A stretch of DNA of 64,000 nt from Apus apus (GCF_020740795.1 NC_067310.1:429940-493939); one strand, 5' to 3'; counted from the stretch's first letter, positions 28,010 through 64,000 are shown. Numbers and translations are program-made. Notes: a model not told the origin generated them from the sequence alone.

Positions 28010-28146
28010 TCAGAGCGCAGGGCCCGGGGGGGTGGCATTGTCCAGGGCCGGGGCCAGTCCCAGCAGCCCCCGAGCAGTGGCGAAGAGGTTGAGGGGGGCG
28101 GCGCCGTCAGTGATGAGGGTGGATTGGAGCCCCAGGCCCTGCAGCA
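28010..28146 (-). CDS. MVP: MVP last coding exon ([47 protein letters not shown], stop TGA at 28012..28010). A minus-strand AATAAA lies near 27946-27951.
   Basis: Matches [32 protein letters not shown]... A stop codon is followed by a polyadenylation signal about 60 nt downstream. Confidence 0.8.
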
Positions 28147-28397
28147 GCTTCACCTGCGGGGACCGGGGCTCAGACAGGGCGAGCCCCGCCCCTCACAAGC
28201 CCCGCCCCCTCGCCAATCCCAGCCCCCACGACGAGCCCCTCCCCGCCCACCAAGCTCCGCCCCACGCCAGGGCCCCGCCCCCGCCGCCCAGAGGTGCCGT
28301 GGCCACCGCAGCCCCACCCAGCCCTGCCACGCCCCCAGCCGCGGCTCCACCCCCTCACAGGCGGCCACGCCTCCCGAGAGCCACCCCAGCCCGCACC

Positions 28398-28583
28398 TGC
28401 AGCTCGGGCCCGGCTCGGGCGATGTCCCGGATGGTCTCGGGCCCCAGGGCGGCCGCCACTTCCCGCACCCGCGAGGCCTCCACGTCCGCCAGCGCCTGCG
28501 CTCGCGCCGCCTCCGCCTCCGCCCGCGCCCGCTGCGCCCGCACCTCCTGCGCCTGCACCCGCTCCAGCCGCGCCAGCTCCGCC
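28398..28583 (-). CDS. MVP: MVP exon (EAELARLERVQAQEVRAQRARAEAEAARAQALADVEASRVREVAAALGPETIRDIARAGPELQ)
   Basis: Matches [63 protein letters not shown]. Confidence 0.85.
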
Positions 28584-28687
28584 TCCTGGGGGCGGGGGCA
28601 GCCTTAGGACACGCCCCCGCCCATAGCTCCGCCCCCTGAGGGCGGGGACAGCCCTCGGGCACGCCCCCAAGCCCCGCCCCGCACCGT

Positions 28688-28813
28688 CTCTATGGCGATG
28701 GCCTCGGCCTTCAGCTTGGCCTGCAGGATGGCCGCCTCCCCCTCGATGCGCGCAGCCTCGGCCCGGGCCTGCGCCTCCGCCCGCGCGGCCCCCGCGCTCT
28801 CCACGGCTGCGCT
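28688..28813 (-). CDS. MVP: MVP exon ([43 protein letters not shown])
   Basis: Matches [43 protein letters not shown]. Confidence 0.9.
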
Positions 28814-28892
28814 GCAGGGGAGAAACAGAGTCACGACCCTGGCCAGCCCGGGTGCCTCCGAGTGCACGCGGGGAAGATGGCCTACCTGAGGG

Positions 28893-29003
28893 CCTCCAGC
28901 TCCAGCAGCTCCCTGCGCGTCCGCTCAGCCTCCGCCTGGTCCAGCAGCCGCTGCCGCTCCAGGCGTCCCCTGGCCTCCTGTGCCAGCCGCTCCGCCTCGT
29001 GCC
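28893..29003 (-). CDS. MVP: MVP exon ([38 protein letters not shown])
   Basis: Matches [38 protein letters not shown]. Confidence 0.9.
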
Positions 29004-29049
29004 TGGGGACAGGGGGACGTTGTGGGGGTATGTGGACACCAGGGACGTG

Positions 29050-29290
29050 GGGCACGTAGTGACATGGGGCAGCAATCAGGCATTTTGAGGATATGGGTGA
29101 TGTAGGGGGCATGGGGAGAGTGGGGGACACGGTGTGGGGGACTAGGTAGGACGCAGGGGACATGGAGGGACATGGGGGTATGGCAGCATGGAGCTTTTGG
29201 GGAGACATAAGGAAACACTGGAGGGCATGGGGGACATGGAGAGACATTTGGGGACATGGAGATCCAGAAGGGCCTCCTGGGTGTTAGTGC
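29050..29290. repeat. Intronic GGGGACATGG-type tandem repeat (MVP intron)
   Basis: Reiterated ggggacatgg / gggcatgggg units. Confidence 0.7.
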
Positions 29291-29352
29291 TGATCTCACC
29301 CTCTAGCTGCAAGGGACATGGGGGACACAGGACGAAGCTGGTGGCATGTGAA

Positions 29353-29571
29353 GTGACCTGGCAGCAGCCTCCTGGGAGTTGGTGGCGATCTCAATGGCCA
29401 GCTGGACGCTGCGCTGCAGCGCGTCGCGGGTGCGCTGGTCCACGGGCTCCACACTCTGGATGTCGACACTGGTGACCACCAGCCCGTTGGGGGCGAAGCG
29501 GAGCTGCTCCCACAGCCGCCCGCCCTCGTCGAAGCCAAAGACAGCCGAGCAGATGAGACGGTTGGAGTTCT
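29353..29571 (-). CDS. MVP: MVP exon ([70 protein letters not shown])
   Basis: Matches NSARIIRTAVFGFE...[47 protein letters not shown]. Confidence 0.9.
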
Positions 29572-29847
29572 GGGGACAGCAGGGACACATGAGACACTCG
29601 GGGATAACGGCATCACCTGGAGACACCAGGAGTGGTGCTGGGGACACCAGAGAAGAGGGATCTCAGGGAACACGTGGGTTAAAGGCCAGCACGGATAAGC
29701 TGACGAAAAGTTCTTGGGACATCAGGGACCCGAGGCAACACGGAGAGAGACCCAAAGTGACCCAGGGCACCAGCGAGGGATGTGGAGGCAGTGGTGGCTG
29801 GACAGAGGGGATGCAGTGGGTAGAGGGACACCAAGGAGACCTTGTGA

Positions 29848-29980
29848 AAGTCATCAAAGGTGACAGCGGCCACGGCGCCGCGCACGCGGGAAGCCAGGGC
29901 CTTGCAGGCGTCACCCACGAAGTCCGGGACGCTGAAGAGACGCCCCAGGGCCTGGGGGTCCTCAGGGACCTCGAAATGCC
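29848..29980 (-). CDS. MVP: MVP exon ([46 protein letters not shown])
   Basis: Matches [48 protein letters not shown]. Confidence 0.9.
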
Positions 29981-30195
29981 TGGAGAAGGGGTAAGGGGGG
30001 GCTGCCCTCATGGCTGCCGGCCATGGCCGAGCCACCCCCCTGGCTCCTCCTCAGGACCAAGCCCCACCCTCTGGCTCTAAGCCCCGCCCCCTTGTCTAGC
30101 CCCGCCCATGTATCCCGACTCCACCCCCGCCCCACCCCCCACCTATCACTCAGGCCCCGCCTGCTCAGGCCCCGCCCCGAGGCCCCGCCCACCAG

Positions 30196-30392
30196 TTGTA
30201 GGCCAGCTGCAGCTGCAGCCGCGCGTGATCTGCAGTCTCGATGGTGACGATGTCGGCGCAGAAGTCGGGGCCCAGGCGCAAGCAGAGGCTGCGGCGGGCG
30301 TGGGGGCGCTTGGGGCGCCCAGCTGAGAGGGACAGGACTGTCAGCTGCTCCCCAGGGCCCAGCATCACCAGCTCGGGGCCCAGCACCACCCT
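30196..30392 (-). CDS. MVP: MVP exon ([66 protein letters not shown])
   Basis: Matches [66 protein letters not shown]. Confidence 0.9.
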
Positions 30393-30635
30393 GTGACAGG
30401 CAGACAGCATGTCAGGGGAAAGGGTGACAGCCCAAAGGGCCAAAACATGCCCAGAAGCCACCACACGCTGCTCCCAGCACTGTCACCTGCCCCCTTGGGG
30501 CCCGGAGCCACCCTGCTGGGACAAGGACATGCTGTGACATGTGGGTGCCCAACACCACCTTGGGACCTACCAAGGACACCATTCACATGCCAAGGATGAT
30601 GGTCACAATGCAAGGACACACCAAGGACAAGTCAC

Positions 30636-31110
30636 AGAATCACAGAGTGGGAGGGTCATAGTATGGCTAAGTGGGGAAGGAACCTGGGAACCTCTGGGAA
30701 CCTGGTCTAGTGGTAGGGGTCCCTGCTCATACCTGGGAGGTTGGAACTAGATAAACTTTAAGGTCCCTTCCAACCTTAATAATTCTATGATTCTATGATC
30801 TTGTCCAACCTCATGCTTCAGCTGGGCCACCCAGAGCTGGCTGCCCATCACTGTGTCTAGTTGGGTTCTGAGTACCTCCATGGATGGAGACTCCACCACA
30901 ACCCTGGGCAACCTGTGCCAGTGCTCGGTCACCCTCACAGTGAGAGTGTGTTCCCTGATGTCCAGAGGGAACCTCCTGTGCTCCAGTTTGTGCCTCTGCT
31001 CCTCTCCCTGGACACCTCCACTCTCTCTGCAGGTCCCTTCAGGTATCTGGAAACCTTAAGGAGGTCCCTCTGAGCCTTCTCTTCTCCAGGCTCAACAGTC
31101 CCAGCTCTCT
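30636..31110. mobile_element. CR1 fragments within an MVP intron (a plus-oriented 3' end at 30636-30800, then a minus-oriented fragment)
   Basis: CR1 terminal ..aggttggaactagataaactttaaggtcccttccaacc..attctatgattctatga at 30636-30800. The minus-strand ORF VTEHWHRLPRVVVESPSMEVL is CR1-like. Confidence 0.75.
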
Positions 31111-32979
31111 CAGCCCCTCCTCAGGTGTAAGGTGCTCCAGTGCCTCCATCATCTTCATGGCCCTTCATTGGCTTCTCCATGTCTCTTGTCCTGGGGAGCC
31201 CAGCACTGCAGGTGGGGCCTCCCCAGTGCTGAACAGAGGGAAGGGTCACCTTCCCAACCTGCTGGCAACGCTTCCCATTGGCCTTCTCTGCAACAGGAGC
31301 ACACTGCTGGCTCATGGTCAACCTGGTGTCCTTCAGGACCCCAAGGTCCTTTTCTGCATGTGCTGGTGCCTGGGGCTGCTCCTCCCCAGGAGCAGGAGGA
31401 TCAGCTCCCCTTGCTGATCTTCCTGAGGTTCCTGTCCACCTGTTTCTCCAGCCTGTCCAAGTCCTTTGGGGTGGCAGCAACACTCCGGCCTCTCAGCCAC
31501 CCCTCTCAGTTAGGTGTCATCTCCAGACTTGCTGGGAGGCCACTGCCCCATTGTCTGGCCACTGGACCAGCTTTCAGTCCACCTCTCCACTCATCCAGCC
31601 AGAGTTTATCAGCTTCTCCATAAGGATCTTGAGGGACACAGTATCAAAGAACTTCAAGGTCAGGTAGACAACAGCCACTGCTCTCCCCTCATCTGCAAAC
31701 CCAGCCATTTCACTGTAGAGTGGTTGGTCAAGCATGACTTCCCCTTGCTGGAGCCATGCTGACTACTTGTCCCTATTGCCTGGAAATGGCTTCCAGATTA
31801 GCTGCTCCACCACCTTCCCAGGGATCCAGGTGAGGCTGAGTGTCCTGTCCGGGGTCCTCCTTCTTGCCTTTCTGGAAGGTGGGAGTGACCTTTCCAGGCT
31901 TTCGACACTTTTCCCAGTTGCCATGATCCACCAAAGGTCATGGAGAGGCCACTCATCAGCCAAGTGCTCAGCCCCTTCAGCCCCAGCAGGGCTCATGGAT
32001 CTACACATTTGCTCAAGTATTTTTTACCTTCAACCTCCTCCACCAAGTGGTGTCTTCTGTGCTCGAGACCAGCCCTCTGGAGTTCACGAGCCCCGAGAGT
32101 GACTCACAGACTGAAGCCAAGGAGATGCTGTGACACAAGAGTTCTTGCATTGTCACTTGCTCCCTGGGGCCCTACGTGACCAACTCTATACCCAGCACCG
32201 CTCTGTGATGTGCCACAAACACAGGAAGGGCAGGACTCACATGCCAAGGAGACACCACTTCTCACACAGTCACCTGCACCCTGATGTTCAGCACCCTCCT
32301 CTGTGCCCTCCATCTCCATATCCTCCTCCCATGTACACCACACAGTATGTCCAGCATCCTGGCTTGTATCAGCACTGGTGTGTCCAGCAGGACCAGGGCA
32401 TGGATCGTCCTCCTGTGTTGGGCACTGGGGACACCTTGAATCCTGGGGCCAGTTCTGGGCCCCTCAAAACAAGGACATGGAGGGGCTGGAGCATGTCCAG
32501 GGAAGGGAAATGGAGCTGGGGAGGGGGCTGGAGCACAAGGAGAAGGGGCTGGAGAACTTGTGAGGAGCAGCTGAGGGACCTGGGGGTGTTGAGCTGGAGA
32601 GGAGGCTGAGGGGAGACCTTCTGGCTCTGCAGCTGCCTGAGAGGAGGTTGGAGCCAGGGGGGGTCAGGCTCTGCTCCCCAGGAACAAGTGATGGGACAAG
32701 AGGAACTGGCCTCAAGTTGCCCAGGGGATGCTGAGATTGGATCTTGGGAACATCTTCATGGAAAGGGTTGTCTGGCCCTGGCCCAGGCTGCCCAGGGCAG
32801 GGGGGGGAGTCTCCATCCCTGCAGGTATCTAAGAGCCGTGTAGATGGTGCTGAGGGACATAGCTCAGTGGTGGCCTTGGTAGAGTTGGGTTAGAGGTTGG
32901 ACTCGATGATGTCCAAGGCCTTTCATAACCCAAAGGGTTCTGGGACCTCCCTGGCCCTCCATCCCCTGCCCCCATGCTC

Positions 32980-33232
32980 ACCGTGCCCGTCGCTCCCGGT
33001 AGTCGTAGACCTGCACAGCTGCATTGTGGGGCACCTGGTAGGTGACGGCGCGGGTGCGGTCGCGCTGGGGGGGCCCAACGTGGGGGCTGGAGGAGCCCTG
33101 GAGCCCCGCGTCCACCCTGTGGGGGTCCCCACGGGCCTCAGCCAGCAGAGCCTCCACCCCGGGGGGTAGCTCCTTCTCCCACAGCTCCTCTGACTCCGTC
33201 AGCATGTAGGTCTGGCCAGTCACCACCCGTAC
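32980..33232 (-). CDS. MVP: MVP exon ([45 protein letters not shown]...[24 protein letters not shown])
   Basis: Matches [30 protein letters not shown]...[25 protein letters not shown]. Confidence 0.85.
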
Positions 33233-33279
33233 CTGCAGGCAGAGCCACCTCAGGGGGCTGCCAGGAACTGGGAGGAACT

Positions 33280-33960
33280 GGGAGCACTGGGGTGGGGAGT
33301 TGCAGGCACTGGGAGCAGCGATAGGGGGGACTGGGATGAGGTGGAGGGGTATTGGGGAACTGGGAGGGGGTTTGGAGGCACTGGGAGCAGGAATAGGGGG
33401 TACTGGGAGCAGGGATAGGGGATACTGCAAGCAGGGACAGGGGGGACTGAGAGGACTGGGACGAGATGGAGGCATACTGGGGCACTAGAAGGGAGTTTGA
33501 AGGCACTGGAAGGGATTTTGCAGGCACTGGGAGCAGGGATAGGGGGTACTGGGGGCACTGGGATGAGGTGGAGAGGTATTGGGGCACTGGGATGGAGGTT
33601 GGAGACACTGGGAGCAAGGATAGGGGGGACTGGGAGCACTGCGATGAGATACATGGGATACTGGGAGTACTGGGAGGCTGGGGGGGACACAGGGCTGGGG
33701 TAAATGGTTAGTGGGAGTACTGGGATGGGGCTGGGGGCACTGGGGATGTGTGGGAGGTTACATAGGCTATAGAGGGGCTATGGGGGGGCATGGGGCCTAT
33801 GTGGGGGCTTTAGGGGCTATGGAAGGGGCTTTGAGGAGGTTCTAGGGGCTATGGGGGGGCTATAGAGGGGCTATGGGGAACTTTGTGGAGCTGTGGGAGT
33901 CTATAGGGGATATAGGGGGGATACTGGAGGGCCACAGGGGCTATAGGGAGCTGGGGGGGC
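33280..33960. repeat. Intronic tandem repeats: about 40-bp units (GGCACTGGGAGCAGGGATAGGGGGTACTGGGA..) followed by GGGGCTATGGGGG-type units (MVP intron)
   Basis: Direct reading of the sequence. Confidence 0.8.
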
Positions 33961-33995
33961 TCTCAGGGCTGTGGGGGGGCTGTGGGGGTCACCTT

Positions 33996-34152
33996 GCCGG
34001 TGCGGATGTCCCGCACGTAGATGCCCTCGTTGTCCCCCAGGGCCACCGCCCGGCGCCGCTCCAGGACCCTCACCTCGGCGGGGGGCACGTACTCCAGGGG
34101 TCCCCGGGCCAGCCAGCGGTCCCCTGCCCGCCGTGTCACCTCTGTCCCCTTC
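33996..34152 (-). CDS. MVP: MVP exon ([54 protein letters not shown])
   Basis: Matches ..[48 protein letters not shown]. Confidence 0.85.
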
Positions 34153-34609
34153 TGGGATTGGGGGGGGGATGGCGTCAGACAGTGGCCTGGGGGTGCAGGG
34201 ACCTCCCCCCTGCCACCCCCTGGATGGGGACATGGCCAGTCCCTCTGTGGCCCTGATGACGTGGGGACAGGGACCCCTGCCCATTGTTCCCCAGCCTAGG
34301 GACACTGCAAAGGGGACTTCTGCCAACCCCCCCCGGCCTTGGGACACAGGGATGAGGACAGGAGTCCCCACCATGTGTCCCCTGGGACCTCCCTAGAGTC
34401 CCTCATGAACCCCAACTGTTCTCAGGTGCCCCAGCTGTCTCCCAGGCTGCTCAACCCCTCCTGGTTTCCCCCCACCCCAAGTTGTCTCCTTTGTCCCCCA
34501 ACCCACTCCTGGTTGCCCCAGTCATCCCAGGCTCCCTGGATACCCCTGCCCAGTTTCTCCCAGATGTTCCCAGGAAATCCTGGAACTCCAGGTGTCCCCC
34601 TGGGCCACC

Positions 34610-34737
34610 TCATCAGTGTCCTTGATGGTCTGGAGGGCCTGGAGCAGCAGCCCCTCATCCTCAGAGAGCACGTAGACATCCTCGATGCCAGCCTGGAGGC
34701 GCTCACCTGGCTGCAGGAAGAAGGACTTCTCCCCCTG
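34610..34737 (-). CDS. MVP: MVP exon ([42 protein letters not shown])
   Basis: Matches [43 protein letters not shown]. Confidence 0.85.
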
Positions 34738-35380
34738 GAGACACGGGGACATGTCATGAGCAGGGCAGGAAGGTGGCAGGGTGGTGAGGACATGGGGCAG
34801 GGGCATGGGGACATGGTGGCACACAGGGCAGGGATACATGGGGGATGTCTTAGGGTCCCTGTGGGCCACTTTCAAGATCTTCAGGGGTGTCTACAGGTAT
34901 GGCAGGGCCAACTTCAGGTTCCTGGTGGCTTCCTGCAGGTTCTTATGGAAGCTAAAGGTCTTAGGGTACCTTAGGACCACCTTTGTGACCTTTGGGGATG
35001 CACTTGGGCACCTCAGGGCCACCTGTGGTCCTCAGGTCCCCTCAGGGACCCTTGGGGACAACTCAAGGGTATGTGAGGATCCCTCAAGGACACCTTATGG
35101 ACCTTCAGGGACACGTCAAGGGTATACTGTGTCCCTTGGGGCCACCTTGGAGACTTTTGGGGTCTCCTCCACATATACAAAGTTCCCTTCGAGCCAGCCA
35201 GGTGTCCCTTGGGGCCGTCCTTGGGTTCTGAGAGCCACACTTGGGTCTCTTGGGGCACCCAATCGAGGTGCATCATGTAAGTTTTGGGGGTCCCTTGAGG
35301 ACCACCTTTGGTGCACCTACATGCAAGCTAAGGTTAGGTCCCTTGGGGCCACCTGCAGGTCCCCAGGGGCTACCCTGCCC

Positions 35381-35617
35381 ACCTTGATGACGCGCTGCTG
35401 GCCCAGCTGGGGCTGCCCGTTGGGCCCCACGGGGTCGAGGACGACGCAATACTGCCGGGGGCCCAGCGTGGTCACCGTCACCTCAGCCACCACCTCCTCA
35501 AAGACCTCAGGGATGTAGGCCTCACTCTGCGCCTGCGTCACCAGCCACTCCTCGCCCGTGCGCCGCACCCGGCCCTGCTCGTCCTCAAAGGTCCTCGTGG
35601 CCCGGAGGTGCAGGGCC
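35381..35617 (-). CDS. MVP: MVP exon ([78 protein letters not shown])
   Basis: Matches [79 protein letters not shown]. Confidence 0.85.
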
Positions 35618-35927
35618 TTCTACAGGGTGGGGGACACACACAGGGGAATGTGGGGGACTAGTGGGACACCCATGGGTGCAGGTGCCACAGGAAGACAGTG
35701 GCTTGGAGATCCCCAAGTCCCCTGGAGGCTTGGGTCCTCATCACCCACAGGGGCAAAGGGTTGAGGCCATGGAGAGGATCAGGGGGGAGATGGGACCCGT
35801 CACCCTTCCCTGGAGGGTTCCTGTCACCCATGGGTGCAGGGTAATAGGGACACAGGACCCCCAAACCCAACCCAGAGGGGTCTACCCACCCTGGGCACCC
35901 AGGAGGAGAGGGTGAGGATGGACAAGT

Positions 35928-36027
35928 ACCTTGTCGGTGAGGATGTAGGCGTCCACCACATCCACCACCTCCTCGTAGACCCCAGGCAGGTAGGCGCCCA
36001 CCTGCTTCACCAGCCACTCCTCCCCTG
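35928..36027 (-). CDS. MVP: MVP exon ([31 protein letters not shown])
   Basis: Matches [31 protein letters not shown]. Confidence 0.85.
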
Positions 36028-36780
36028 GGAGCAGGGGCAGGGGTGACATTGAGGTGCTCAGGGAGGGAAGGGGATGGGGAGCCCGAGGGGTGCTGGGGTG
36101 GGAGGGGGCTGAGGAGTAGGCAGCAAAGGGGGGGCCACAGGGGTGTTGAGGGCCCTGAAGGTCCTAAACATCCTAAGGGTGCTGAGGGCAAGGGGTCCTA
36201 CAGGTGGGGTGGCAGCCCTGAGGATGCTGGGGGTCCTAAAGGCGGGATGGGAAGAACCGGAGGGGTCTGGGTTGGGGGCCCTAGGGGAATTTGGGGTTCT
36301 GAGAGTCCTGTGGGTGCTGGGGGATAAGACGGGGGATCCCAGGGGTGCTGCAGGGGGGAAGGAGGGGTTATGGGGGCTGGGAGTGCTGGGGGTCCCAGAG
36401 GTGCTGTGGGGTGCGAGAGGAGTGTTGTGGAGGAGGGGTATGGGAGTGATGGGGCTTCCAGGGTCACTAAGGGATGGTAGAGGAATCCTGGGAATGCTGT
36501 GGAGTAGGGAAGGGGTGCTGGGGACTCCTGGAGGCCCCCAGGGGTTCCTGTCAGATGACACAAAGCTCCCAAGGGTGCTGGAGGGTAAGGGGACATGGGG
36601 TGGATACAGGGTGTCCCAGGGATGCATCCAGAGGGGGTCCCATGAGGGCCACCAGTGGCACGGGTGACATGGTGCCAGGTGACCCCAGGGAGAATGGGGG
36701 TGATATGGTGCCAGCTGATCCCAGGAGGGTGGTCTCTGTCCCCAGGAGCCCAGGGGTTGTCCCCAGGTGGTACCTGTCAC

Positions 36781-36904
36781 CCGGCGGGTGCCTGAACGGT
36801 CCAGACACTCCTTGCGCGCGCGCAGCCGGATCGCCTGGTTGTGCCCAATGACCGTGGCCTGAAGGGTCTCTGCCACCTCCACCTCCTTGCGGGGGATGTA
36901 GGTG
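36781..36904 (-). CDS. MVP: MVP exon ([44 protein letters not shown])
   Basis: Matches [44 protein letters not shown]. Confidence 0.85.
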
Positions 36905-36990
36905 CCTGTGGAGATGGGGGGAGGGCCTCTGTCAGCTCAAGGGGCCCACCCAGGGTATCCCAGAAGGGGTGACCCCCCCCCCAGCTCACC

Positions 36991-37113
36991 AGGACCCTCG
37001 AAGAGCCACTCATCTCCCGCCACGAACTTGTTCCCGTCCCGGTCCTGGAAGTCGAGCAGGGCCCGCAGGCGCAGGGCTGTGTCCGCCAGCACCGCCCGCA
37101 GGGGCGTGACACC
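36991..37113 (-). CDS. MVP: MVP exon ([42 protein letters not shown])
   Basis: Matches [47 protein letters not shown] acceptor and GTGAGC donor. Confidence 0.85.
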
Positions 37114-37149
37114 CTGGGGACAGAGGGGACAGCAGGGCTGGGACAGCGG

Positions 37150-37560
37150 TGGCACCGCCCAGGTGGGAAGGGGTTGGGGAGGACACCTGGGGACAATGGT
37201 GAGTGACACAGGGGGGATGAGGGGGACACTTGAGGACAATGGTGGGTGACATGGGGGGATGGGGATGGGGCACTTGGGGACAGTGGTGGGTGACATGGGG
37301 GGTAGGGATGAGGTGAGGGTACTTGGGGCAATGGTGGGTGACACAGGGGGGTCACTGTAGGGGCTAAGGGGCATGGTTGGGGTCCATGGGGGTATAGGAG
37401 GTCATGGGGGGGCTAGAGGATGTTCTTGGGGGGCTATAAGAGTGCATGTGGGGCCTACAGAAGGCCCTGGGGAGATACAGGAGGTCCTGGGGGGGCTATA
37501 GGAGGCAGTGTGGGGGGGTGCTGTGGTGGCCACAGGAGCTGCCCAGGCCTCAGGAACCGC
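37150..37560. repeat. Intronic G-rich tandem repeats (ggtgggtgacatggggggatgggg.. / ggggctataggagg..) in an MVP intron
   Basis: Direct reading of the sequence. Confidence 0.7.
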
Positions 37561-37679
37561 GGGAGATGGCAGAGCTGCTGGGGCTCGGGGGGGGACATGG
37601 GAGGCTAAGGCAGGTGACGGGGGCGGGGGCTATGGAACCTTGGGGGCCAGAGGAGCCACAGGGGGAGCCCTGGGGGTAC

Positions 37680-37884
37680 CTGCTGGATCTCCTCGCCAGG
37701 GTAGAGTGGGAAGGGCTCCTGGGCCAGGCGTATGTCCAGGTCGCCGTGGCGCAGCCGGGCCTGGCCAGACCCGTCCAGCAGCGCCGCCCCCCCCGGGCCC
37801 CGCTCCACCGGGTTCAGCACCAGGCAGTAGTGCCGGGGAGGCACCAGCACCATGGCCCGGGGGGCAAACACCACCCTGCAGGGA
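37680..37884 (-). CDS. MVP: MVP exon 2 of the coding region ([24 protein letters not shown]...[25 protein letters not shown])
   Basis: CCTGCAG acceptor and GTACCC donor. Near-identical to the mammalian MVP region ..[41 protein letters not shown]... Confidence 0.85.
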
Positions 37885-37939
37885 CACAAGGGAACCCTCT
37901 GCTGCCCTCAGCTCTACAGAGCCCCCCAGGGGGATCTAC

Positions 37940-38460
37940 AGAGCCCACTGACCCCCCTCAGAATCATCCCAGAATGACTGAGGCTGGATAAGATCTGAGA
38001 TAATCGAGTCCAGCCCGTGACCTGACACCCCCACATCTCCAGACCATGGCACTAAGTGCCACCTCCAGCCTTTCCTGGAGCACCTGCAGGGACGGTGCCT
38101 CCACCACTTCCCTGGGCAGTCCATTCCAATGTCTGATCATCCTTTCCATGAGGAAGTGCTTCCTAATGTCCAACCTAAACCTACCCTGGAGCAGCTTCAG
38201 CCCAGGCCCTCTTGTCCTGTCACTGGTTTCCTGGGAGAAGAGCCCAGACCCCACCTGACCACAACCTCCCTTCAGGTAGTAGAGTAAGAAGGTCCCCCCT
38301 GAGTCTCCTCCAGGCTAAACAAGCCCAGGTCCCTCAGCCTCTCCCTGTCCCTTCACCAGCCCTGTTGCTCTCCTCTGGACCTGCTCCAGCACCTCAGGAT
38401 CTTCCTTGAAGTGAGTGGCCCAGAATTGCATCCAGGACTCGACGTGGGACCACAAAAGCC
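37940..38460 (-). mobile_element. CR1 3' fragment within MVP intron 1
   Basis: The minus-strand ORF ..[50 protein letters not shown] matches the CR1 ORF2 C-terminus. Confidence 0.8.
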
Positions 38461-38916
38461 CTAGGAAGCCCTACAGAACCTCCAGGGCCCTGTAGAAGCC
38501 TCAAGCTCACCAGCCCTACAGAGCCCCACAGCCATAGGAGTGTTCACCTACTGCCCCATGGGATCCCCATCACCCCATAGGGCCCCTGCAGCCCTACAGA
38601 GCCCCCCCACATCCCCAGGGCCCTATAGGACTCAAATGCTCCCCAGGGCCCATGGAGCCCCATAGTCCTCAAGAGGCTCCTAGTACCCACTAGGGCCCTG
38701 ATGAGCACCCAGAGCTCCTCCAGATCCTCTCAAGTGGCCCCACAGGATCCCTCAAACACCTCCTCCAGCTCCACAGAGAGCTCCCCCTCTTCATCCAGGT
38801 TGCCCAAGAGCCACACAAACCCACCCCTGCCCCATAGCCCCACACTGGGCAGTCCTTCCAGGCACAGAGGTGGGACCCATCATCCTGGAGATCCCCTCCT
38901 GCCCCACAGAACCCAC

Positions 38917-39035
38917 CTCTCATGATCCTGTCGGATGTAGGTGTGGGGCCCGACCTCCACGCGGGTGACATTGCTGTTGAGGTCCAGCACATGGACATAG
39001 TGGTAGGGGGGGATGCGGATCACGGGATCCTCCAT
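38917..39035 (-). CDS. MVP: MVP first coding exon (ATG at 39035..39033)
   Basis: Translation [39 protein letters not shown], followed by a GTGGGT donor. It matches the MVP N-terminus [39 protein letters not shown]. Confidence 0.85.
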
Positions 39036-39477
39036 GGGGCAGGTGGCTTCACCGTGGGGCAGGAGACCTTCCTGGGGTGGAGATGAGATTGCTGTGGGGC
39101 AGAAGAGATTGCTGTGTGGCAGAAGAGATGATTGCTGTGGGGCAGATGATTAACATGGGGTGGATCCGCTCATTGCACAGGGTGGGGCAGACGGAAGACC
39201 TGGTCACGGAGCTCCTGGTGAGGTGGAAGCCCTTGTCATGGGGTGGAAAAAACTTGCCATGGGGGCACACATGGGGGGACTGTATGGGCAGCTCATGGTG
39301 AGTGGGGGGAGATAGGCAGAAGGGTCCCCCCATGGGGGAGTCTAAGTGGGGTGGGAGCCCTTGGCACCAGATGGGGAAGGTGCAGGACAGGCACTGGGAG
39401 GTGAGTGGGGTTGCTGGGGGGATGGAGGAGCTGCACACAGGGTGGGACAGAGCCCAAGGGGCAGGGAGTCCCTCCAG

Positions 39478-39740
39478 GGGTGGGGAAGGGCTGCTGTGGG
39501 GCAGGCAGGGCTGCTGTGGGGCAGGCAGGGTTGCTGTGGGGCAGGGAGATTTGCTGTGGGGCAGGCAGGTTTGCTGTGGGGCAGGCAGGGTTGCTGTGGG
39601 GCAGGCAGGGCTGCTGTGGGGCAGGCAGGGTTGCTGTGGGGCAGGCAGGGCTGCTATGGGGCAGGCAGGGCTCCTATGGGGCAGGCAGGGTTGCTGTGGG
39701 GCAGGCAGGGTTGCTGTGGGGCAGGCAGGGTTGCCATAGG
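39478..39740. repeat. 21-bp minisatellite (ggctgctgtggggcaggcagg), about 12-13 copies, between the MVP ATG exon and the promoter CpG island. Related degenerate copies lie at 39060-39170.
   Basis: Direct reading. It is nearly perfect, with the sixth repeat base alternating c/t. Confidence 0.9.
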
Positions 39741-39769: not shown

Positions 39770-40110
39770 GGCCGGAGAGCTCCGCGTGGGGCAGGACAGC
39801 TCGGCCTGTGGGTCGGGAGCTCCCGGAAGAGCCTTCGCCGGCCCAGCCCCGCGGACAAGGCCCGGCCCAGCCCCGGGGCCTCCCCCGCCGCCCCGGGCGG
39901 GACCTGCCGCTCCCAGGCTGCATTTCCCTCTCCCGGAGCTCGGCTCCCCCCTCCCCCCGCCGGGCCGAGGTGTTTCCCAGCAGCGCCGGGAGAAGCGGGC
40001 GCGGCCTCCGGGGCAGCGGGGGCGGCCCCGGGCCCCGTTGTTCGGCAGCGGCCGCGGGCCGGGGGTGCGGGGTGCGGTGACAGGCCCTGGGAAGCGGGAC
40101 ACAAACCACC
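39770..40110 (-). promoter_or_regulatory. MVP: CpG island, probably the MVP promoter plus a non-coding first exon
   Basis: Extreme CpG density immediately 5' of the gene (minus strand), about 0.75 kb upstream of the ATG exon. The intervening sequence is probably a 5'-UTR intron. Confidence 0.5.
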
Positions 40111-41208
40111 CCCCCGGGCATGGATCCACAAATGAGTCAGCCCCTGTCACCCCATGTCACCTGCAGGCACCACCAGCCTGCAGCTCCGCAGCAGCAGCCG
40201 GGGGGGCCACCCCCCATCGCCCCTCACCCCGGTTTCCCTCTGCTGTGCCAGGGATCCCTGCGGACCCGCCCTCGGGCCGCCTCTGCCGGGGGACACGGGA
40301 GGGGGCACAGATGGGGACGATGAAGGGGACGTGGGGCACTGGGGGCATTCAGCGACGGGTGAGGGGACAAGGGGCAAGGGAGGGGGTGCTGGCGTCCAGG
40401 TGGGTGTGGGTGGCACTAGCGGGTGATGGGGCGACTGAGGGAAGAGTGGCAGGGAGCACTGGGTGGGACTGGGGGAAAGGGGACCTGGAGAGCACTGGGG
40501 AGGAGTGACATGTAGAGGGGCTGGGTGGGAACATGAGAACAAGGGGAAGATAGAGGGGGGGTGAGCCTGATGGGACACAGGAGCAGGGGAGAAATGTGGA
40601 GACGGGTTGGGGGGTGAGACAGAGACCAGGGGATATTTGGGAGCTCCTCCTTGACACCTCCTACCCCAGGTGCCACTGTCATCAGTGCCACCCCGGGGCC
40701 AGGGTGGAGGCCAATAGGTGGGGGGTGGGGGCTGTCTCTGTCTTCAGAGTGGAGGTCACAGTGATGGTGCCCCCTGGTGTGTCCTTAGGGTCTGGGGTGG
40801 TGATGGATCCCCACCACCTCCAATATGAGCATTGGTCCCCAGGGACAGGGTGTTACCACCGAACACCACCCTCTTCTCTGTAGGCCAACTTGCCCAGCAC
40901 TCTAGGGACACACCTGTCACCTCCAGGCCCCCAGCTCAAAGACAGGGAGCACCAACCTTCTGTTTTTTCCTGAAGATCTCTGTCCCTGGGTTGTCAGGGA
41001 GCAGGGCTCCCATGCAACTGGGACCCTTGGAGACCTGGCTCCAAGGGAGCTCTGCCCAGACAGAGTGGGCTGGAGAGGATGTGTTCCCTGGACTCCCAAG
41101 TCCCCCAGATGCAAGCTGAGGTGGTTGGGTGGGCAGAAGGCACCTGGGCACCTCCAGAACCTGAGGGGGTGATGCAGGAGGTGGAGGCTGGGGGGTTGGG
41201 TCCCTCGG

Positions 41209-41807
41209 TGTGGGAAACTGTTCTTTTCTTCCCCACATAAGTCTAAACAAAATGTCTTTTAAGCCAGCGAAGGCCTCTCCTGATTATCCCCAGCTAACGA
41301 ACTAAAACAGACTTGCTTCTCAAGGACAACTGAACCCAAAACAACAGCTGTGGCCCGGGACAGAAAGGATGGGCGACAAGCCACCCTGTGCCCCTGGCAG
41401 TCACCGCCCTAACGTGGGGCTGATGGACGCTCGTTGGCTCTGGGCAGTGACACTGACTGGACAGGTGGGTCAGGGGGGATCAAAGGGGCGAGGGCAGCAG
41501 GTGGGCCCTTCCCTCCTCCCTGAGGCCTGTTCGGACGCTTTCTGCCTGGGACACCCCCCTGCTGCGGACACTGGTGCTGGGACCCTGCCTGCCTGCCTGC
41601 CCCGGGTCCAGCCTGAGCCTCAGCGCCGAGCGTGCCGGGGTCCCGAGCCCTGGGGTCGGGGCCGGAGCCCCCTCCCCGTGTTGCTGCCCTGGAGGGGAAA
41701 CCAGCGGCCGCTGCACCCGCTGCCGAGAGGCTGCCCCTCCGACACCACGGACCTGCCGTCCTGCCTTCCGGCCACCGACCGACGCTGGACAAGCCGGAGG
41801 GGAACAT

Positions 41808-41845
<38 letters not shown>

Positions 41846-42310
41846 TCCTTTTCTCATACTTGCACACACAGCGCGACCTCTTAAGGAGGACCGGCGTCGG
41901 GTTTCCTTTCCTCCTCCCTCCTCCCTTTGGTCCTTAACCCTCTCCCTCAAAAGCTCAGGACCTCTTGCATTGCCTCCCTAAAAGACACTTTCTCACCACA
42001 TACATATTGGTATCCCTGGTAGCCATTCACACCTGCATTGTCCCTAAACACCATCCCTCGGTTTGTGTTAACCCTTAATAAACCTATTAGTTTGTGGAGC
42101 AAACCTTGGCTTCAGAGGCAATTTCTGAGCGTGGTGGGGTGGGGGTGCTTTCTAACTCCCCCCCTGAAATACGGCCCCGTGGTGGCCGTTCCTCTGTGAG
42201 AGGCAGCGCCGCGTGTGACCCTCGGGGTCATTCACAAACCCCTTCACATTGAGAGGGGGAGTCGCAAAAGGATCCTGACAGCCGGGAGCCCCCGGTACCG
42301 GCTTGCGACA
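41209..42310 (+). mobile_element. Solo LTR of the ERV-L-like family (1102 bp, TG..CA), flanked by a 5-bp target-site duplication CTCGG (41204-41208 and 42311-42315)
   Basis: Full-length alignment to the LTRs at 2437-3525 and 59287-60375 in inverted orientation. AATAAA lies on the plus strand within the LTR. Identical pentamers flank it, and there is no internal retroviral sequence. Confidence 0.85.
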
Positions 42311-42529
42311 CTCGGTCAACTGGGTAGATTGGAGAGTGAGCCACAGGATCGTTTAGGTTGGAAGGGATATCTTAAGGTCACCTGGTACAACCTGCTGTAC
42401 AGTGCATCATGCTGGGACAGGGCAAGAGCATCTAGTCAGGAGCAAGGGTAACAGCCCAAGGGGTCCAGGACATGCCCAGGAGAAACCACTGCATGCTTGT
42501 CCCAGCACTGTCACCTGCTCCCTGGGGCC

Positions 42530-42850
42530 TGGAGCCACAGAGTCACAGAATCATGTTAGGGGTTGGAAGGGACTTCTGAAGATCATCGAGTCCACCCCCC
42601 TGCTGCAGCAGGAACACCCAGGGCAGGTCATACAGGAACGTGTCCAGATGGGTCTTGGAAGGAGGCTCCACAGCCTCTCTGGGCAGCCTGTCCCAGGGCT
42701 CTGTCACCCTCACAGTGCAAAGTTTCTCCTCATCTTGAGGTGGAACTTCCTGTGTTGTCCCTTGGTGCCGTTTCCCCTGTACCCGTCACAGGCACCACTG
42801 AACACAGACTGGCCCATTCTTGACACCCACCCTGTATATATTTGGCTTCA
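42530..42850 (-). mobile_element. CR1 fragment
   Basis: It starts with cacagagtcacagaatcatgttaggggttggaagggac, then the CR1 antisense-frame peptide. Confidence 0.7.
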
Positions 42851-43394
42851 GTGTTGATCCTAATGTGAGCAGAAGATTGGGCTGGAGACCACTCAAGGTC
42901 TCTTGGTATGAGGGTGAGAAGGTCCAGCTGTGGAAGGGGTTAACCAGGCTGGCAGCAGCAACCCAAGGGGGAGTTTCCCTGGAGCTGAGATAAGCATCAT
43001 CCTCGTGATTCAGTCACCCTGGAGGGACAGCAGAGCATCTGGGGACCCATGGATGCTCACAGGGTGCTGGGTGCTGGTCTGCCACGTGCATTGCTCATTG
43101 TTTTGTGGTTTTATAGTTAGATTTTAGCAAAATTGTGTGCATTTCACCTCAAGGTACAATAAAAAATCCCCAACGCTACTAAATGTTCAGGAAAAGAGTG
43201 AGAGAACCAATAGCAAAGCAGCTGGCAAAGCCTGAACCCCTTGAGCCCTGAGGTTCAAAGTTGTTTACCTAAGAAGTGAAAGCAGAGGTTTGTCAGGTGC
43301 ATCCAGTGTTTTTAGCCTCACAGAAAAAGGAAATACATCATCTCCCTTTTTATCTTTGCAAACTCTTTTGTAATATCTCTAACATTCCTTACTT

Positions 43395-43600
43395 ATTATT
43401 ACTTAGCCCTGGAACAGGCTGGCAAGGAAGGTTGTGGAGTCTCCTTCTCTGGAGACTTTCAAGACCCATTTGGATGCATTTCTGAGTGACCTGCCCTAGT
43501 GACCTAGGTGGTCCTGCTCTGGCAGAAGGGTTAGACTCAATGATCTCCTGAGGTCCCTTCCAACTGTCACCATTCTGTGCTTGATTCTGTGATTCTGTGC
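43395..43600 (+). mobile_element. CR1 3' end
   Basis: ..PWNRLAREVVESPSLETFKTHLDAFLSDL.. and the terminal attctgtg octamer repeats. Confidence 0.8.
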
Positions 43601-47560: not shown

Positions 47561-50500
47561 TGTTTTCCAGGTCTGCTGGACAGCACTGGTGGTGCTTGTG
47601 TGGAAAAGCAGCAGGGGTTCGGAGGCCATGGGATGGACAAGCTTCAGCACTGCACCTGTTGGTCAAGGACAGCTGGCAGAGCTCCTCAGAAGCTGCTGGA
47701 GCTTGCCTGCAGCCCTCCAGCAATCAGGGTCTCTCTCTCTCTGACTCTCCTGCACTGGCAACAACAGCCCCTGGATCAAGGCTGAAGCTCCCAAAGGATC
47801 TCAGGCAGTGTCCTCAGAAGAGTTTTTCAGGACTCTGAAGGGCAAAGGCACTTGGCAGGAACTTGGGGTGAATTTCATGCTGAGCAGGAGATTGGTCTAG
47901 AGACAGACCCAGTCCCTTCCCACTGGAACAGTTCAGGGATGAATCTGTGATCTCTGGTGGTGGCTCCTGCATTTCTGGCAGGCCTCAGCTCCTCGCCTGC
48001 TTGTGGGGCAGCACCAAGCATGGGAACCCTCAAGCCAGACCTTCACCAGGGCCTCCTGTTTACCACAGGGCCTGAAACCTTGGAAGCTGAGTACTCCCTT
48101 GTGGATGAGGGCTTGTTCAGACAGAGCAGGCTCTCCTCCCAGCCTGCCACCACTGGCATGGCAACAGGGTGACAAAGGAGAGTGACACATGCAGACAGGA
48201 AGGTGACCTTCCCACCTCCCTGAGGTCCCTGGAAGATCCAGTCCAACCCAGCAAGATGGGAAGAGCCCTAAACCTTTCAGGTGCCATTTGTAAGGTTGAC
48301 CAGATCAGTCTAAGAGGATGTGGGAGGTGGGGTTGTTACTGAATTGACTAAATTTTGATTATTTAGAAGGCCTGGGCCTGGTTGGGCCTGACCAAGACAA
48401 GGCTTTTAGGAGAAACCATTCACATAGGAATCATATTGGGAGGGGAAGTGGGTGATTATGTTTTACTTCAGTAGTCACAGAACCCACATGTACTAGACAA
48501 GCAGCACATGCAAGTAGCTAAGGTCTAGTGTTGCATAAAGGGTAAGATATTATGCTTAAGCAGCTACCATGGAAAGAATAATGCAATAATAAATCCTGAA
48601 CCTATCACACAGTGGCCAAGGTCACAGTAACCTGTTATGCTGCTTGAATATCCCCTTACCCCATTCTAACCTGATTTGAATATCAGGGACTATAATCAAT
48701 AGGGTGACCAATTATTTTTGTTAGAAATGAATATGTATGAAGTTATGTAACTTGCAGGGGCCAATCAATGCTAAGGTTAAAATTAACAAATAATTAAAAG
48801 CAAGCATTATATGCATTTTTATGTTAAATATTTTAGACAACAGAAATTTAATATATAAAAACCAGTTGATTGTAATTAAACTCAGGATACGCTAGGAGGA
48901 GTTATCCCCCATATCCCTGCACGCTTATAAATAAGTGTCTGCTTATCTACATCACATTGGTTTTGATCAGTTATTTTCCCCATATTTGATGACCATTTTT
49001 GGTGATCCAGATGGGACCTCAGTGGGAGAGACCAGAGGAGTCAGGGACCTGATAAGTTCTAGCTGGCACCAAGGAAATTCTTGGGGATACCCATTGATCC
49101 CCGATCCAGAAGGCTCTTTGCAATGTCTCCTGGAATTGCTAAGACACTTCTTATTTGGTTTAGGGTTTGAGTCCCTCAGTCTGTATTTAGAGGGGGTTTG
49201 AGTCACCCAGTCTGCCTGTCAGACATCCTGAAAGCTGCGCAGGGTTGGACTAAGAGGGGACCCATTTGGAAGCTGGGGCGTCTGCCCATAAGACATAAGC
49301 AAAAGGTAGTGCAGGGTTGGACAAATTGTGATAATAGAAATTTAAGTGCACATAAGTCTTTGTCGGTATCTTTATGTACATTTGTAACTGGTTATGTACA
49401 TTTTTGTTGGCATTATTGTGTGTGTGTGTGACTGAAACGTACAAATAAGTATGAAGCGAGTGCAGAGTTCTGATCCCTGGGTCTATTTATCCTGCCAGGG
49501 GTGCAGCTGGAGAAGAACAAAGTGAAAGACTGAGCAATTTGTGTGAACTTTAACACAGTTATAATGATTTTCAAGTTAACACATTTGTTTAAGAATAAAA
49601 GTGTTAGTAATTTAGCTTCTGATGAAAAGATACTGAAAACTTCCCCATTAGGGTATTTATTAACCCATTGGGGAGAATTGCAAGATGATTTGCAAAAAAG
49701 CCAAATGATAGAGTATTGTAATCATTGGTGGCCCCTGTATGTTTTAGAAGATCAGGAAAAATGGCCCACAAATGGAACTTTTGAGTTATAACACTATATT
49801 ACAACTAATGGTGTTTTGCAGAAGGGAGGGGAAATGGAAGGAGGTGCCATATGTAGACTTGTTATTTTATCTGAGGCAACAAACTGATTGCCAGCAAGAA
49901 TGTAAATTGATTAGCAGAGTCAATCTAGTAATGGCTTTAACTTCTGAAAAGAAAAAAACAAAGAGATCTTTCTCTATGTGTGTTATTGGAAAGAAGTGCA
50001 TCAAATGTATGGTGCCAAAACATGAAATAGGACTGGAATTAGATGTAGCTCCTTCACAAAGAGGACAGGAACACCACAGACAGGGACAGTGGCATGAAAG
50101 GGATAATGAATCGGTAGAAATGGTGGAGCCAGAGAGTAGTGGAATGAAGTATGAGGAAGAAGGACCTTCGAGAGTTGTGGTGCATACCCCTGTATCTCAG
50201 AGAACTAGGCAGCAAACACAGGTGGTAGCCCCTTTGAGACAAGGAGTTGGTCAAGAGGGACCTGTGCATGTGAAAGTACCTTTTTCAATTGTGGATTTGG
50301 TGTCTTGGAAGCAGCTGCAGGACCTTATAGGGAAAATCCTGAGAAGGTTGGTAGGATACTAAACACCACTATTAGGACACAGAATCCGAACTGGAATGAT
50401 ATCCAAGTGATACTGGATTTGATGGATGGGACAGAGAAGCAAGTGGTATTGAGGGCTGCTAAGGCACAGGCAGAAACAGCAGTGCTGAATGGGGCAGCAA

Positions 50501-51461
50501 GGGGGACTCTAGAGCAAAATTTTCCTTCTGGAGATGCAGAGTGGGATCCAAACTGTGTGGAGCATAGGCAGAGACTGAATTGGTATTGGAACTGGGTTTT
50601 GTATGGAGGGAAACATGCAATACCTAAGGCTGTGTGAAGTGAGACAGGATAAGAGCAAATCTCCTTCTGTGTTTCTAGAAAGATTAGAGGAAGCAGCTGG
50701 AAAATACACTAATTTGGGAGTGGATACAGATACAGCACAAGTGCAACTGGTCTTAATCTTTATAGGACAACCTGCACCAGACATAAGGAGAAAGCTTCAG
50801 AAACTGGATGGTGAAGATTCAAAAAATCTGAATGTTAGAGGTGACATGGAAAGTATATAATAACAGAGAAGGAAGAAAGGAGAACTAGGGAAAACAGGCT
50901 GCTGGCAGTGGTAACAGGAATACCTGTGAGAGGTAGAGGACACAGGGGAAGAAGGGGGGACATAGGGAGAGGTGGAAAACAGAACTTAAATGCTCCCTTG
51001 GGAATAAATCCGTGTGCTTACTGTAAAGAAGAAGACATTAGAGGCGAGAGTGCCCAAAATGGAGGGGAGGTCAGCAAGAGGCAGCAAGATTGATGATGTT
51101 AGATGAATGAAGGGAACCAGAGGGGAACCCAGCTGAACCTCAGGTTGTAATTAAGCTGGGAGAAAAAGAGGTTACGGTTTTGGTGGACACCAGAGCAACA
51201 TTCTCAGTTTTGAATACTTGTAAAAGGAAATTGGGCACCAAAAAAGCAAATATAATTGGGCCACGGGGAAGGAGGAAAATAGGCCATTCCTTCAACCCCT
51301 GGATTTAAAATTTGGGAACAAAACAATTACACATGAATGTACCAGAATGTCTGATACCCTTATTAGGGAGAGATTTGTTATCTAAACTAAACACACAAAT
51401 TGTTTTTGAAAATGGAGAGCTCCTCTGAAAAATACCTGAGTCAAAGACAGGAGAAAGTTTA

Positions 51462-52470
51462 ATGATACAAGAAAAAAGAAAAGAACAAGAAATTCCACGA
51501 GAAGTGGATTTGGCAGTAATCCCTACAGTATGGGAAACAGATAAACCTGGCAAACTGAAATTAGCACAACCTATTAAGATAGAATTGAAACAGGGTGCAA
51601 AGCCAATGAGGATTAAACAATATCCAATCAAACCAGAAGCCAGGAAGGGAATTAAGAAATTAATTGATAAGTTTATAGAATATAAAATTCTTGAAGAGTA
51701 TGAACCCAAGTACAATACCCCAGTCTTACCAGTGAGAAAACCTTCAGGTGAGTATAGGTTGGCACAGGATCTGAGATAGTTAAGGACATACACCCTGTAG
51801 TGGAAAATCCTTATACTTTTTTAACAGCTTTGAGGGAGGAACATCAGTGGTTTACAGTGCTTGCTTTAAAAGATGCTTTCTTTTGCATACCTCTGGATGA
51901 GGAAAACAGAAAACTGTTTGCCTGTGATGTGAGAATCCATAAACAGGGCAAAAGATGCATTTCACATGGACAAGGCTACCACAAGGATTCAAGAACAGCC
52001 CAGTGATTTTTGGAAAGCAACTGGCCAAAGAACTTGAAATATGGAAACAAGATGATTCAAGAACAAAACTGGGATATCTGCTTCTGTAGTATGTGGATGA
52101 CATGCTGATTGTTACAGAAGAGAGTTCTGCCTGCATAAAGGTAACAATAGAACTTTTACGTTTTCTTGGACTAAATGGGTACAAGGTATCCAGAAATAAA
52201 GCCCAAATAGCAAAACAGACTGTGACATATCTGGGCTTCAAAATTTTAAAAGGGCAATGGCGATTGGGAAGAGACTGTAAGGAAGCCATTTGTGGCATCC
52301 TGGAACCCAAAAACGTTCACGAACTGAGGGCATTTCTGGGAATGGCCAGGTGGTGTCGTCTGTGGATAATTAATTATGGTTTAATAGCCAAGCCACTGTA
52401 TGAAGCCCAAAAGAAATCTTCCTTTTTATGGGGTCCAGATCAGCAGTGGGACTTTAAAGACCTGAAATGA
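51462..52470 (+). pseudogene. Reverse transcriptase region of the class I ERV (frameshifted)
   Basis: ORFs 51462-51779 and 52093-52470 carry RT motifs, with YVDD at about 52084-52095. Confidence 0.75.
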
Positions 52471-53566
52471 GCACTAATGTCTGCACCTGTCCTGGGACTT
52501 CCAGATTTAACCAAAGATTTCCACTTGTTTGTTCATGAAAGACAGCGTCTAGCATTGAGAGTGCTGACCGAGAGAATGGAAAGCAGGAAGAGACCAGTTG
52601 GATATTCCTCCAAACAACTGGATGCTGTAAGTACTTGTCTCCGAGCAGTTGCTGCTACAGTGATGCTTATCCAAGAAGCCTGAAAACTGACTTTGGGAAG
52701 AACAACAACAGTGTATGGCCTGCACATGGTAACTGTTAAAACAAAAGGGAGGACATTGGTTATCCCCTAGCAGAATTATGAAATACCAGGTGGTGTTGAC
52801 TGAACAGGATAATGCAATTTTGAAAACAACTAACCTAGAGAATCCTGCAGTTTTTCTAAGTTCTTCACAGGAAGAAGGACAACTGGAACATGACTGCCAC
52901 ACCACCACTGAACATGTGTATTCCAGTTGGGAGAATTTGAAGGACATCCTGTTGGAAGACCCTGACTGGGCAGCAGTTTTGTGGAACATGGAGTTCAATA
53001 CACTGAATATGCAGTAACAACTGCAGACTCAGTCATAAAGGCAAAAGCATTGCCTGGCACCATGTCAGCCCAGAAGGCAGAGTTTGTTGTCTTAGCCAGG
53101 GCCCTTAAATTAAGTGAAAGAAGGAAGTTGAACATTTGGACTGATTCAAAATACGCCTTTGGGGCAGTACATGTCCATGGGGAGGATTATTATCCTCCCA
53201 AGGATCAAACATTAAACATCAAAATGAAATTTTACAATTACTGCAAGCTGTTCAAAAGCCTACCCTGCACTGTAAAGCACATTAGGTGGGAAATACAAAA
53301 GAGATTGGATGGAATAACTTACCAGATAGACCTGCAAGGAAGGCGGCAAGAGAAAAGTCTTTGCAAACGACTTTGTTTCCAATGAAAACAATAACTCCTC
53401 CAAAGGAAAAAACTAAATATACAGAGGAAGATGATAAAATAGGAAAATTATTGAATGTAAAGAAAAATTCAGCTGGGTGGTGGGTCACACCTAATGGACA
53501 GGTAGTAATACCACCTTCCTAATAAGAGAAATAATTCAGACAAAACACAAAAAATGTCATTGGGGT

Positions 53567-54010
53567 GTGGAAGCCTTAGTTACCCTTTTAAAAAGGCAAG
53601 TGGTATCAGTCAAAATGTTAGGGATAGCCAAAATGATAACTACAAAATGTGATTTGTGTTTAAAGAATAATCCAGTGATGGAGAAAAAAGTTCAGATGGG
53701 TAAGCTCAAATCTCGCACAGAACCAGGTGATTATTGGCAAATAGACTTTCCAGAGCTATCCAGACAAAATGGGTATCAATGCTTTTTGGTGGGGGTTGAC
53801 GTTTACAGGATGGCCAGAAGCCCTTCCTTGTCACACTACACAGGCAAAAGAGGTAGTAAAATGGCTATTACAAGAATTAATATTGAAGTTTGGAATCCCT
53901 GTTGGGATCTCTTCAAACAGAGGTCCAGATTTTGTTGTTGAAGTTGTGCAAAGTGTATGCAATAAAATAGCATTCTTAACAATTCAATATATAATTAAAA
54001 TTTCATGGCT
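53567..54010 (+). pseudogene. Integrase N-terminus and core of the class I ERV, truncated at about 54010
   Basis: ORFs 53567-53941 and 53769-54026. Retroviral sequence ends abruptly at an AT-rich block. Confidence 0.7.
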
Positions 54011-59286: not shown

Positions 59287-59737
59287 TGTCATGAGCTGGT
59301 ACCGGGGGCTCCCGGCTGTCAGGATCCTTTTGCGACTGCCCCTCCGATGTGGAGGGGTTTGTGAATGAGCCCGAGGGTCACACGCGGCGCTGCCTCTCAC
59401 GGAGCAACGGCCACCGCGGGGCCGTGTTTCCGGGTGGTAGCTAGAGAGCACCCCCACCCCACCACGCTCAGAGATTGCCTCTGAAGCCAAGATTTACTCC
59501 ACAAACTAATAGGTTTATTAAGGGTTAACACAAACCGAGGGGTGATGTTCGGGGACAATACAGGTGTGAATGGCTACCAGGGATATCAATATGTATGTGG
59601 TGAGAAAGTGTCCTTTAGGGAGGCAATGCAAAGGTGCTTTTAAGGGAGAGGATTAAGGACCAAAGGGAGGAGGGAAGGAAACCCGACGCCGGTCCTCCTT
59701 AAGAGGTCGCGCTGCGTGTGCAAGTATGAGAAAAGGA

Positions 59738-59775
<38 letters not shown>

Positions 59776-63907: not shown

Positions 63908-64000
63908 AATAATGCCCTTTTGTTTTAGATCAGAAATGACTTCTTTGATGCCTTCCTTAGCAGCAACAGGAATGGAATACTGCTTAATATTTGTGATCCT

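Follow-up and report, generated by a model that had tools for sequence, protein, structure and literature searches.

A solo ERV-L-type LTR with an intact CTCGG target-site duplication upstream of the MVP promoter in Apus apus

The ERV-L elements (HERV-L, MuERV-L with its MT2 LTR, and avian ERV-L) include an example of co-opted LTRs, namely the MT2/MuERV-L LTRs that drive mouse 2-cell-stage transcripts. Target-site duplications are typically 4 bp long in class I endogenous retroviruses (ERVs) and 6 bp long in class II. A 5-bp duplication is characteristic of ERV-L (PMC8278194, PMC5930517), and TGT/ACA ends are a conserved motif of class III ERVs (PMC8278194). MuERV-L combines a 5-nt duplication with a Leu primer binding site, and the solo LTR is the commonest ERV form (PMC5930517). 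The reverse transcriptase (RT) motifs have been tabulated as DYRKLN and YIDD for ERV-L, DYREVN/YVDD for foamy virus and DLREVN/YVDD for MLV (PMC8278194).

Here, a 64,000-nt stretch of the Apus apus genome (GCF_020740795.1 NC_067310.1:429940-493939), hereafter the window, was analysed around a 1102-bp element, LTR A, that lies upstream of the major vault protein gene (MVP). LTR A is an ordinary, well-formed solo LTR of a lineage-specific avian ERV-L family. With a probability of about 90%, we read it as the solo leftover of a class III ERV germline insertion. At 1.1 kb, the swift LTR is long compared with that of MuERV-L (about 0.5 kb), and it carries a GC-rich insert of approximately 670 bp, including a (CA)n tract, that is absent from an older relative (copy D) in the window. 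The family shares with the known ERV-L elements the TGT...ACA termini, the 5-bp duplication and the tRNA-Leu primer binding site, and further a DYRKLN/YIDD RT, the lack of env and the frequent survival of solo LTRs (PMC5930517, PMC8278194). It differs from MuERV-L in that U5 is linked to the primer binding site by 2 nt in the swift family and by 5 nt in MuERV-L (PMC5930517). No dUTPase is recognisable in the swift provirus linked to copy B.

Boundaries and structure of the LTR

Self-comparison of the window identified further copies of the family, designated B, C and D. LTR A, its duplication and these copies are as follows.

41204-41208, strand not assigned: left copy of the target-site duplication CTCGG (sequence reading and string extraction)
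41209-42310, plus strand: solo LTR A, 1102 bp, TGT...ACA (full-length alignment to copies B and C)
42311-42315, strand not assigned: right copy of the target-site duplication CTCGG (sequence reading and string extraction)
59287-60375, minus strand: copy B, 1089 bp, 3' LTR of a provirus that extends past the right window edge; 95% identity to LTR A
2437-3525, minus strand: copy C, 1089 bp, 5' LTR of a provirus that extends past the left window edge; 93% identity to LTR A
11758-12207, minus strand: copy D, 450 bp, older relative and solo LTR; 76-78% identity to LTR positions 1-264 and 938-1102

LTR A (41209-42310) starts with TGTGGGAAACTG and ends with CGGCTTGCGACA. Both termini are canonical (TGTGGG...GCGACA), and the element is collinear with copies B and C over its whole length. 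In the three-way alignment of A, B and C, similarity starts at TG and stops at CA, and the 10 flanking columns on each side are unrelated. Because similarity is confined to TG...CA, the boundaries are set independently of the CTCGG pentamers, and the extent given in the initial annotation (TG..CA, 1102 bp) is now fixed by alignment. The same annotation had described a solo LTR with an intact CTCGG duplication. On re-reading, the two pentamers were identical and abutted both ends, with no internal retroviral sequence next to the LTR, which bears this description out.

A 5-bp repeat alone is weak evidence, as short repeats are plentiful in GC-rich sequence, and the element might in principle be a chance TG...CA stretch with a fortuitous pentamer, a copy made by segmental duplication, or a truncated provirus. 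Against these explanations, three further family members in the window have the same termini, similarity is cut off exactly at TG and CA, and a 5-mer match at fixed positions is expected by chance with a probability of only about 0.001 at this base composition. No primer binding site, polypurine tract, internal retroviral sequence or retroviral ORF abuts either flank; the left flank is unique in the self-comparison of the window, and the right flank resembles other window sequence only through a CR1-like repeat that starts approximately 90 bp past the LTR. Shared termini, exact similarity edges, the odds of the duplication and clean flanks together effectively refute these three explanations.

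CR1-like fragments lie directly to the right of LTR A, at 42340-42840 and 43405-43600, with the octamer motifs of their 3' ends visible as cacagaat in one orientation and attctgtg in the other. LTR A inserted approximately 25 bp beyond the 3' terminus of one such fragment.

Within LTR A, two sequence elements are readily located.

41813-41842, plus strand: (CA)15 microsatellite, a feature of the family
42077-42082, plus strand: AATAAA polyadenylation signal, kept in copies A, B and C

The AATAAA presumably marks R, in which case U5 would comprise approximately the last 200 bp. The (CA)n tract has 15 repeats in A, 15 in B and 17 in C. No canonical TATAAA occurs in LTR A, and the lone TATA-like candidate is a conserved CATATT at 42003, approximately 74 bp upstream of AATAAA. 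Thus, among the elements that had been attributed to the LTR, AATAAA and the (CA)n tract are present on the plus strand, but the TATA-like element comes down to CATATT. The sense strand of LTR A is the plus strand, as set by the primer binding site that follows copy C and by the purine-rich tract and pol sequence that precede copy B.

Family members in the window and the class of the retrovirus

The proviral members of the family supply the internal features that a solo LTR by definition lacks.

2417-2434, minus strand: primer binding site TGGTGTCAGAAGTGGGAT, 2 nt past copy C, with complementarity to a tRNA-Leu 3' terminus plus CCA
60376-60384, minus strand: purine-rich tract GGGGTGAGA, which precedes copy B
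61323-63907, minus strand: pol of the provirus of copy B, broken into several frames (RT/RNase H, an RNase H fragment and integrase)

The primer binding site after copy C identifies this copy as a 5' LTR. It belongs to a partial ERV-L-type provirus at 1-3525 on the minus strand, which consists of the LTR, the primer binding site and gag-like ORFs at 405-980 and 1184-1639 (together spanning 405-1639), and which is flanked at its 5' side by the pentamer CTGAC. A second partial provirus of the same family, at 59287-64000, contains copy B. Its RT/RNase H ORF of 456 aa is open (62537-63907) and has RVT_1 and RNase H-like domains. The provirus also carries an RNase H fragment together with the zinc domain and the core (rve, 61323-61943) of a fragmented integrase. 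As these two proviruses have the same orientation and lie approximately 57 kb apart, they could mediate non-allelic recombination that deletes or duplicates MVP.

Copy D has a perfect 5-bp duplication of its own, with CCAGG at 11753-11757 and at 12208-12212, which is a second, independent case of the same integration signature. It has neither the GC-rich core nor the AATAAA region of the 1.1-kb LTRs.

The sequence features of the family support its assignment to the ERV-L type (class III), as the initial annotation had proposed. TGT...ACA termini go together with 5-bp duplications at two independent insertions (CTCGG for A, CCAGG for D), a tRNA-Leu primer binding site, ERV-L-like RT motifs and a foamy-virus RT as the nearest solved structure. 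The primer binding site was read in the proviral family member C, and TGGTGTCAGAAGTGGGAT has the sequence expected for pairing with the 3' end of a vertebrate tRNA-Leu(CAA) plus CCA. The 20-mer TTCGAATCCCACTTCTGACA, the complement of the primer binding site, is present in many metagenome contigs and was the 3' end of a tRNA-Leu gene in 7 of the 10 contigs scanned with ARAGORN. No tRNA genes were found in the window itself. The RT ORF (62537-63907) contains TVDYRKLN and YIDDVLV. When it was searched against solved structures, the top matches were to foamy-virus PR-RT (E = 7e-37, 131 bits), with a modest lead over MLV/XMRV RT (approximately 1e-31, 114 bits). In the copy B provirus, the integrase core and the 3' LTR are no more than approximately 950 bp apart, and this stretch has stops in every frame, which indicates that env is absent. 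In this stop-filled region after the integrase (60376-61322), no dUTPase ORF could be recognised; PF00692 (dUTPase) is carried by distant pol homologues only, and the gene could be degraded or truly absent in this provirus.

An origin of LTR A among class I (gamma-like) or class II (beta/alpha-like) ERVs would be compatible with the missing dUTPase and with an RT score to MLV not far below that to foamy virus, and a gamma-like ERV remnant (Gag_p30, RT) does occur at 49.7-54 kb of the window. This remnant, however, has no sequence in common with LTR A. The 5-bp duplications at both insertions, the Leu primer binding site, the DYRKLN and YIDD motifs (PMC8278194), the foamy-virus RT at the top of the solved-structure matches and the absence of env also count against such an origin, which we consider very unlikely.

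The gamma-like remnant is an unrelated element at 49772-53941 on the plus strand, with a Gag_p30 ORF (50305-50637) and RT fragments (51462-52470). No LTR pair was detected for it within the window.

In a large protein collection, the closest pol proteins came from other bird orders and were 57-60% identical, and the search returned no swift copies. The family therefore appears to be specific to the swift lineage. Lookups of the two longest LTR ORFs for more copies gave no match, nor did an exact 30-mer from the LTR core against viral contigs. As documented by the copies in the window, this apparently swift-specific ERV-L family combines a tRNA-Leu primer binding site with an LTR that is unusually long and rich in CpG.

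Uneven divergence and the history of the insertion

A GC-rich part of the LTR is nearly identical in the three long copies.

41409-41838, plus strand: CpG-rich LTR core, 430 bp, 70% GC, 28 CpG, near-invariant in A, B and C

The core corresponds to LTR positions of approximately 200-630 and is located at 59760-60190 in B and 2900-3330 in C. Among the three copies, 4 of 426 alignment columns vary within the core, compared with 60 of 572 elsewhere (Fisher P = 3e-11); the regions outside the core differ by 3-11% among copies. In copy C, 11 of the 19 CpGs of the 3' part are gone, but all 28 in the core persist. LTR A keeps this CpG-rich core (observed/expected 0.5-0.6) near the MVP promoter, a point against its assumed neutrality.

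Uniform neutral decay after insertion cannot produce this contrast between core and flanks. Candidate causes include ectopic, possibly GC-biased, gene conversion among nearby copies, and mosaic LTRs that arose when subfamilies recombined and that have a U3 core under selection. A third candidate is germline hypomethylation, but alone it would not explain the missing non-CpG changes. The comparison rests on three copies, which are too few to choose between these causes. More speculatively, the U3 core might be actively homogenised, by gene conversion or by hypomethylation together with selection, and the copy beside MVP would then be a CpG-island-like regulatory module rather than an inert one; we regard this as improbable. 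In its gene-conversion version, which is possible, the events would be repeated, ectopic and GC-biased, with the CpG-island-like core serving as a recombination hotspot in a bird not known to have PRDM9. If the core were indeed actively homogenised, the LTR beside MVP would act as an enhancer or divergent promoter.

For the insertion itself, we favour a simple history. A class III (ERV-L-type) retrovirus integrated, probably in the germline of a swift ancestor, where the 5-bp staggered cut made by integrase duplicated CTCGG. A full provirus would have resulted, and homologous recombination between the provirus's own two LTRs would then have removed the internal genes, leaving the one 1102-bp LTR that lies between two copies of CTCGG. 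The sequence itself shows the integration and the remaining solo LTR, and the steps between them are supplied by established retrovirus biology. The match of CTCGG at the two ends indicates that the LTRs that recombined belonged to a single element and not to different ones. LTR A is assumed to be a selectively neutral passenger at present, approximately 1 kb upstream of the MVP promoter.

Avian neutral rates are a few times 10^-9 per site per year. Relative to the majority consensus of the three copies, LTR A has a K2P distance of 0.017 overall and 0.033 in its 3' third, which would correspond to an age of roughly 5-15 million years, an unreliable estimate given that divergence is strongly uneven along the LTR. 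If this age were true, an empty site would be expected in hummingbirds and probably in distant swifts. The MVP locus of Nyctibius bracteatus aligns upstream only to window position 39886, short of the insertion site, and CR1 repeats alone match beyond this point. When copy D served as the outgroup in a recombination test, the 'shared derived' sites were mostly parallel CpG decay. The uneven divergence is a caution against dating LTRs of this swift family by divergence. The presence or absence of LTR A would make a clean marker in studies of swift phylogeny or population genetics.

The MVP neighbourhood and a possible regulatory role

The features of MVP that face the LTR are as follows.

28013-39035, minus strand: coding exons of MVP, with the ATG at 39035
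approximately 39770-40440, minus strand: CpG-dense region, probable MVP promoter and non-coding exon 1

Within the window, the core of each exon matches Apus apus MVP at 100% identity. A likely splice donor of exon 1 (cacg|gtgagg) lies near 39765, and a likely acceptor lies near 39072. Measured from 41209, where the LTR borders on this region, it is approximately 0.8 kb to the edge of the CpG island and 2.17 kb to the MVP ATG, and the distance to the probable transcription start region would be approximately 1.1-1.4 kb. The distance of 1.1 kb to the MVP promoter that had been proposed is a fair estimate with respect to the CpG island and this putative start region. The opposite orientation of the two features was also correctly called, the LTR being on the plus strand and MVP on the minus strand. 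LTR A and MVP thus form a head-to-head pair in which the LTR has its U3 end towards MVP.

The arrangement has some likeness to that of the co-opted MT2/MuERV-L LTRs, with an ERV-L-type LTR approximately 1-2 kb from a host promoter, a CpG-rich U3 and a polyadenylation signal. LTR A is divergent from MVP, so any effect would need enhancer or antisense activity. It might be supposed that LTR A was co-opted as an enhancer or as a bidirectional or alternative promoter of MVP, with (CA)n length modulating its activity. The MVP CpG island and probable start site are only approximately 0.8-1.4 kb away, the U3 core is still CpG-rich with no CpG lost, and the two MVP transcripts recorded for isoform X1 are compatible with alternative 5' exons. 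On the other hand, as the sense strand of the LTR is plus and MVP is on minus, the LTR cannot be a conventional sense alternative promoter of MVP. Sense transcription would lead away from MVP into a CR1-rich, gene-poor stretch, and a canonical TATA box is absent. Moreover, the (CA)n tract and the intact core also occur in copies B and C and are therefore properties of the family and not local adaptations. Solo LTRs are in general mostly neutral (PMC5930517). The suggestions of the initial annotation that the LTR might act as an alternative promoter or enhancer, and that microsatellite length variation could modulate this, therefore find no backing here: the element is divergent, and the tract was inherited from the family at 15, 15 and 17 repeats. 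Judging from the sequence, a real regulatory role of LTR A for MVP is unlikely. LTR A matters little as it stands, and its importance would grow only if the LTR influences MVP.

A coding or structured-RNA role of the LTR core was also considered and rejected. Four LTR ORFs had no match in Pfam, the region 40500-43000 had no match in Rfam, and the 171-aa ATG ORF is disrupted in copy B, where a 1-bp insertion shifts its frame.

Two RefSeq accessions of Apus apus MVP, XP_051497518.1 and XP_051497523.1, have the same isoform X1 sequence, indicating two MVP transcripts, which probably differ in the 5' UTR. A 20-bp minisatellite at 39487-39734 (12.4 copies, 93% matches, plus-strand unit AGGGTTGCTGTGGGGCAGGC) lies between the probable exon-1 donor and the ATG, and is therefore probably in MVP intron 1. 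A degenerate 20-bp array at 39054-39146 is related to it.

In another part of the window, a 525-bp inverted repeat (8498-9022 and 16384-16907, 99.2% identity) encloses 7.4 kb of sequence, in which a CCDC81-like HU-domain ORF (10374-10931, PF18289) and the solo LTR D are located. The repeat may have arisen recently by inverted duplication, or its two arms may be the termini of another mobile element.
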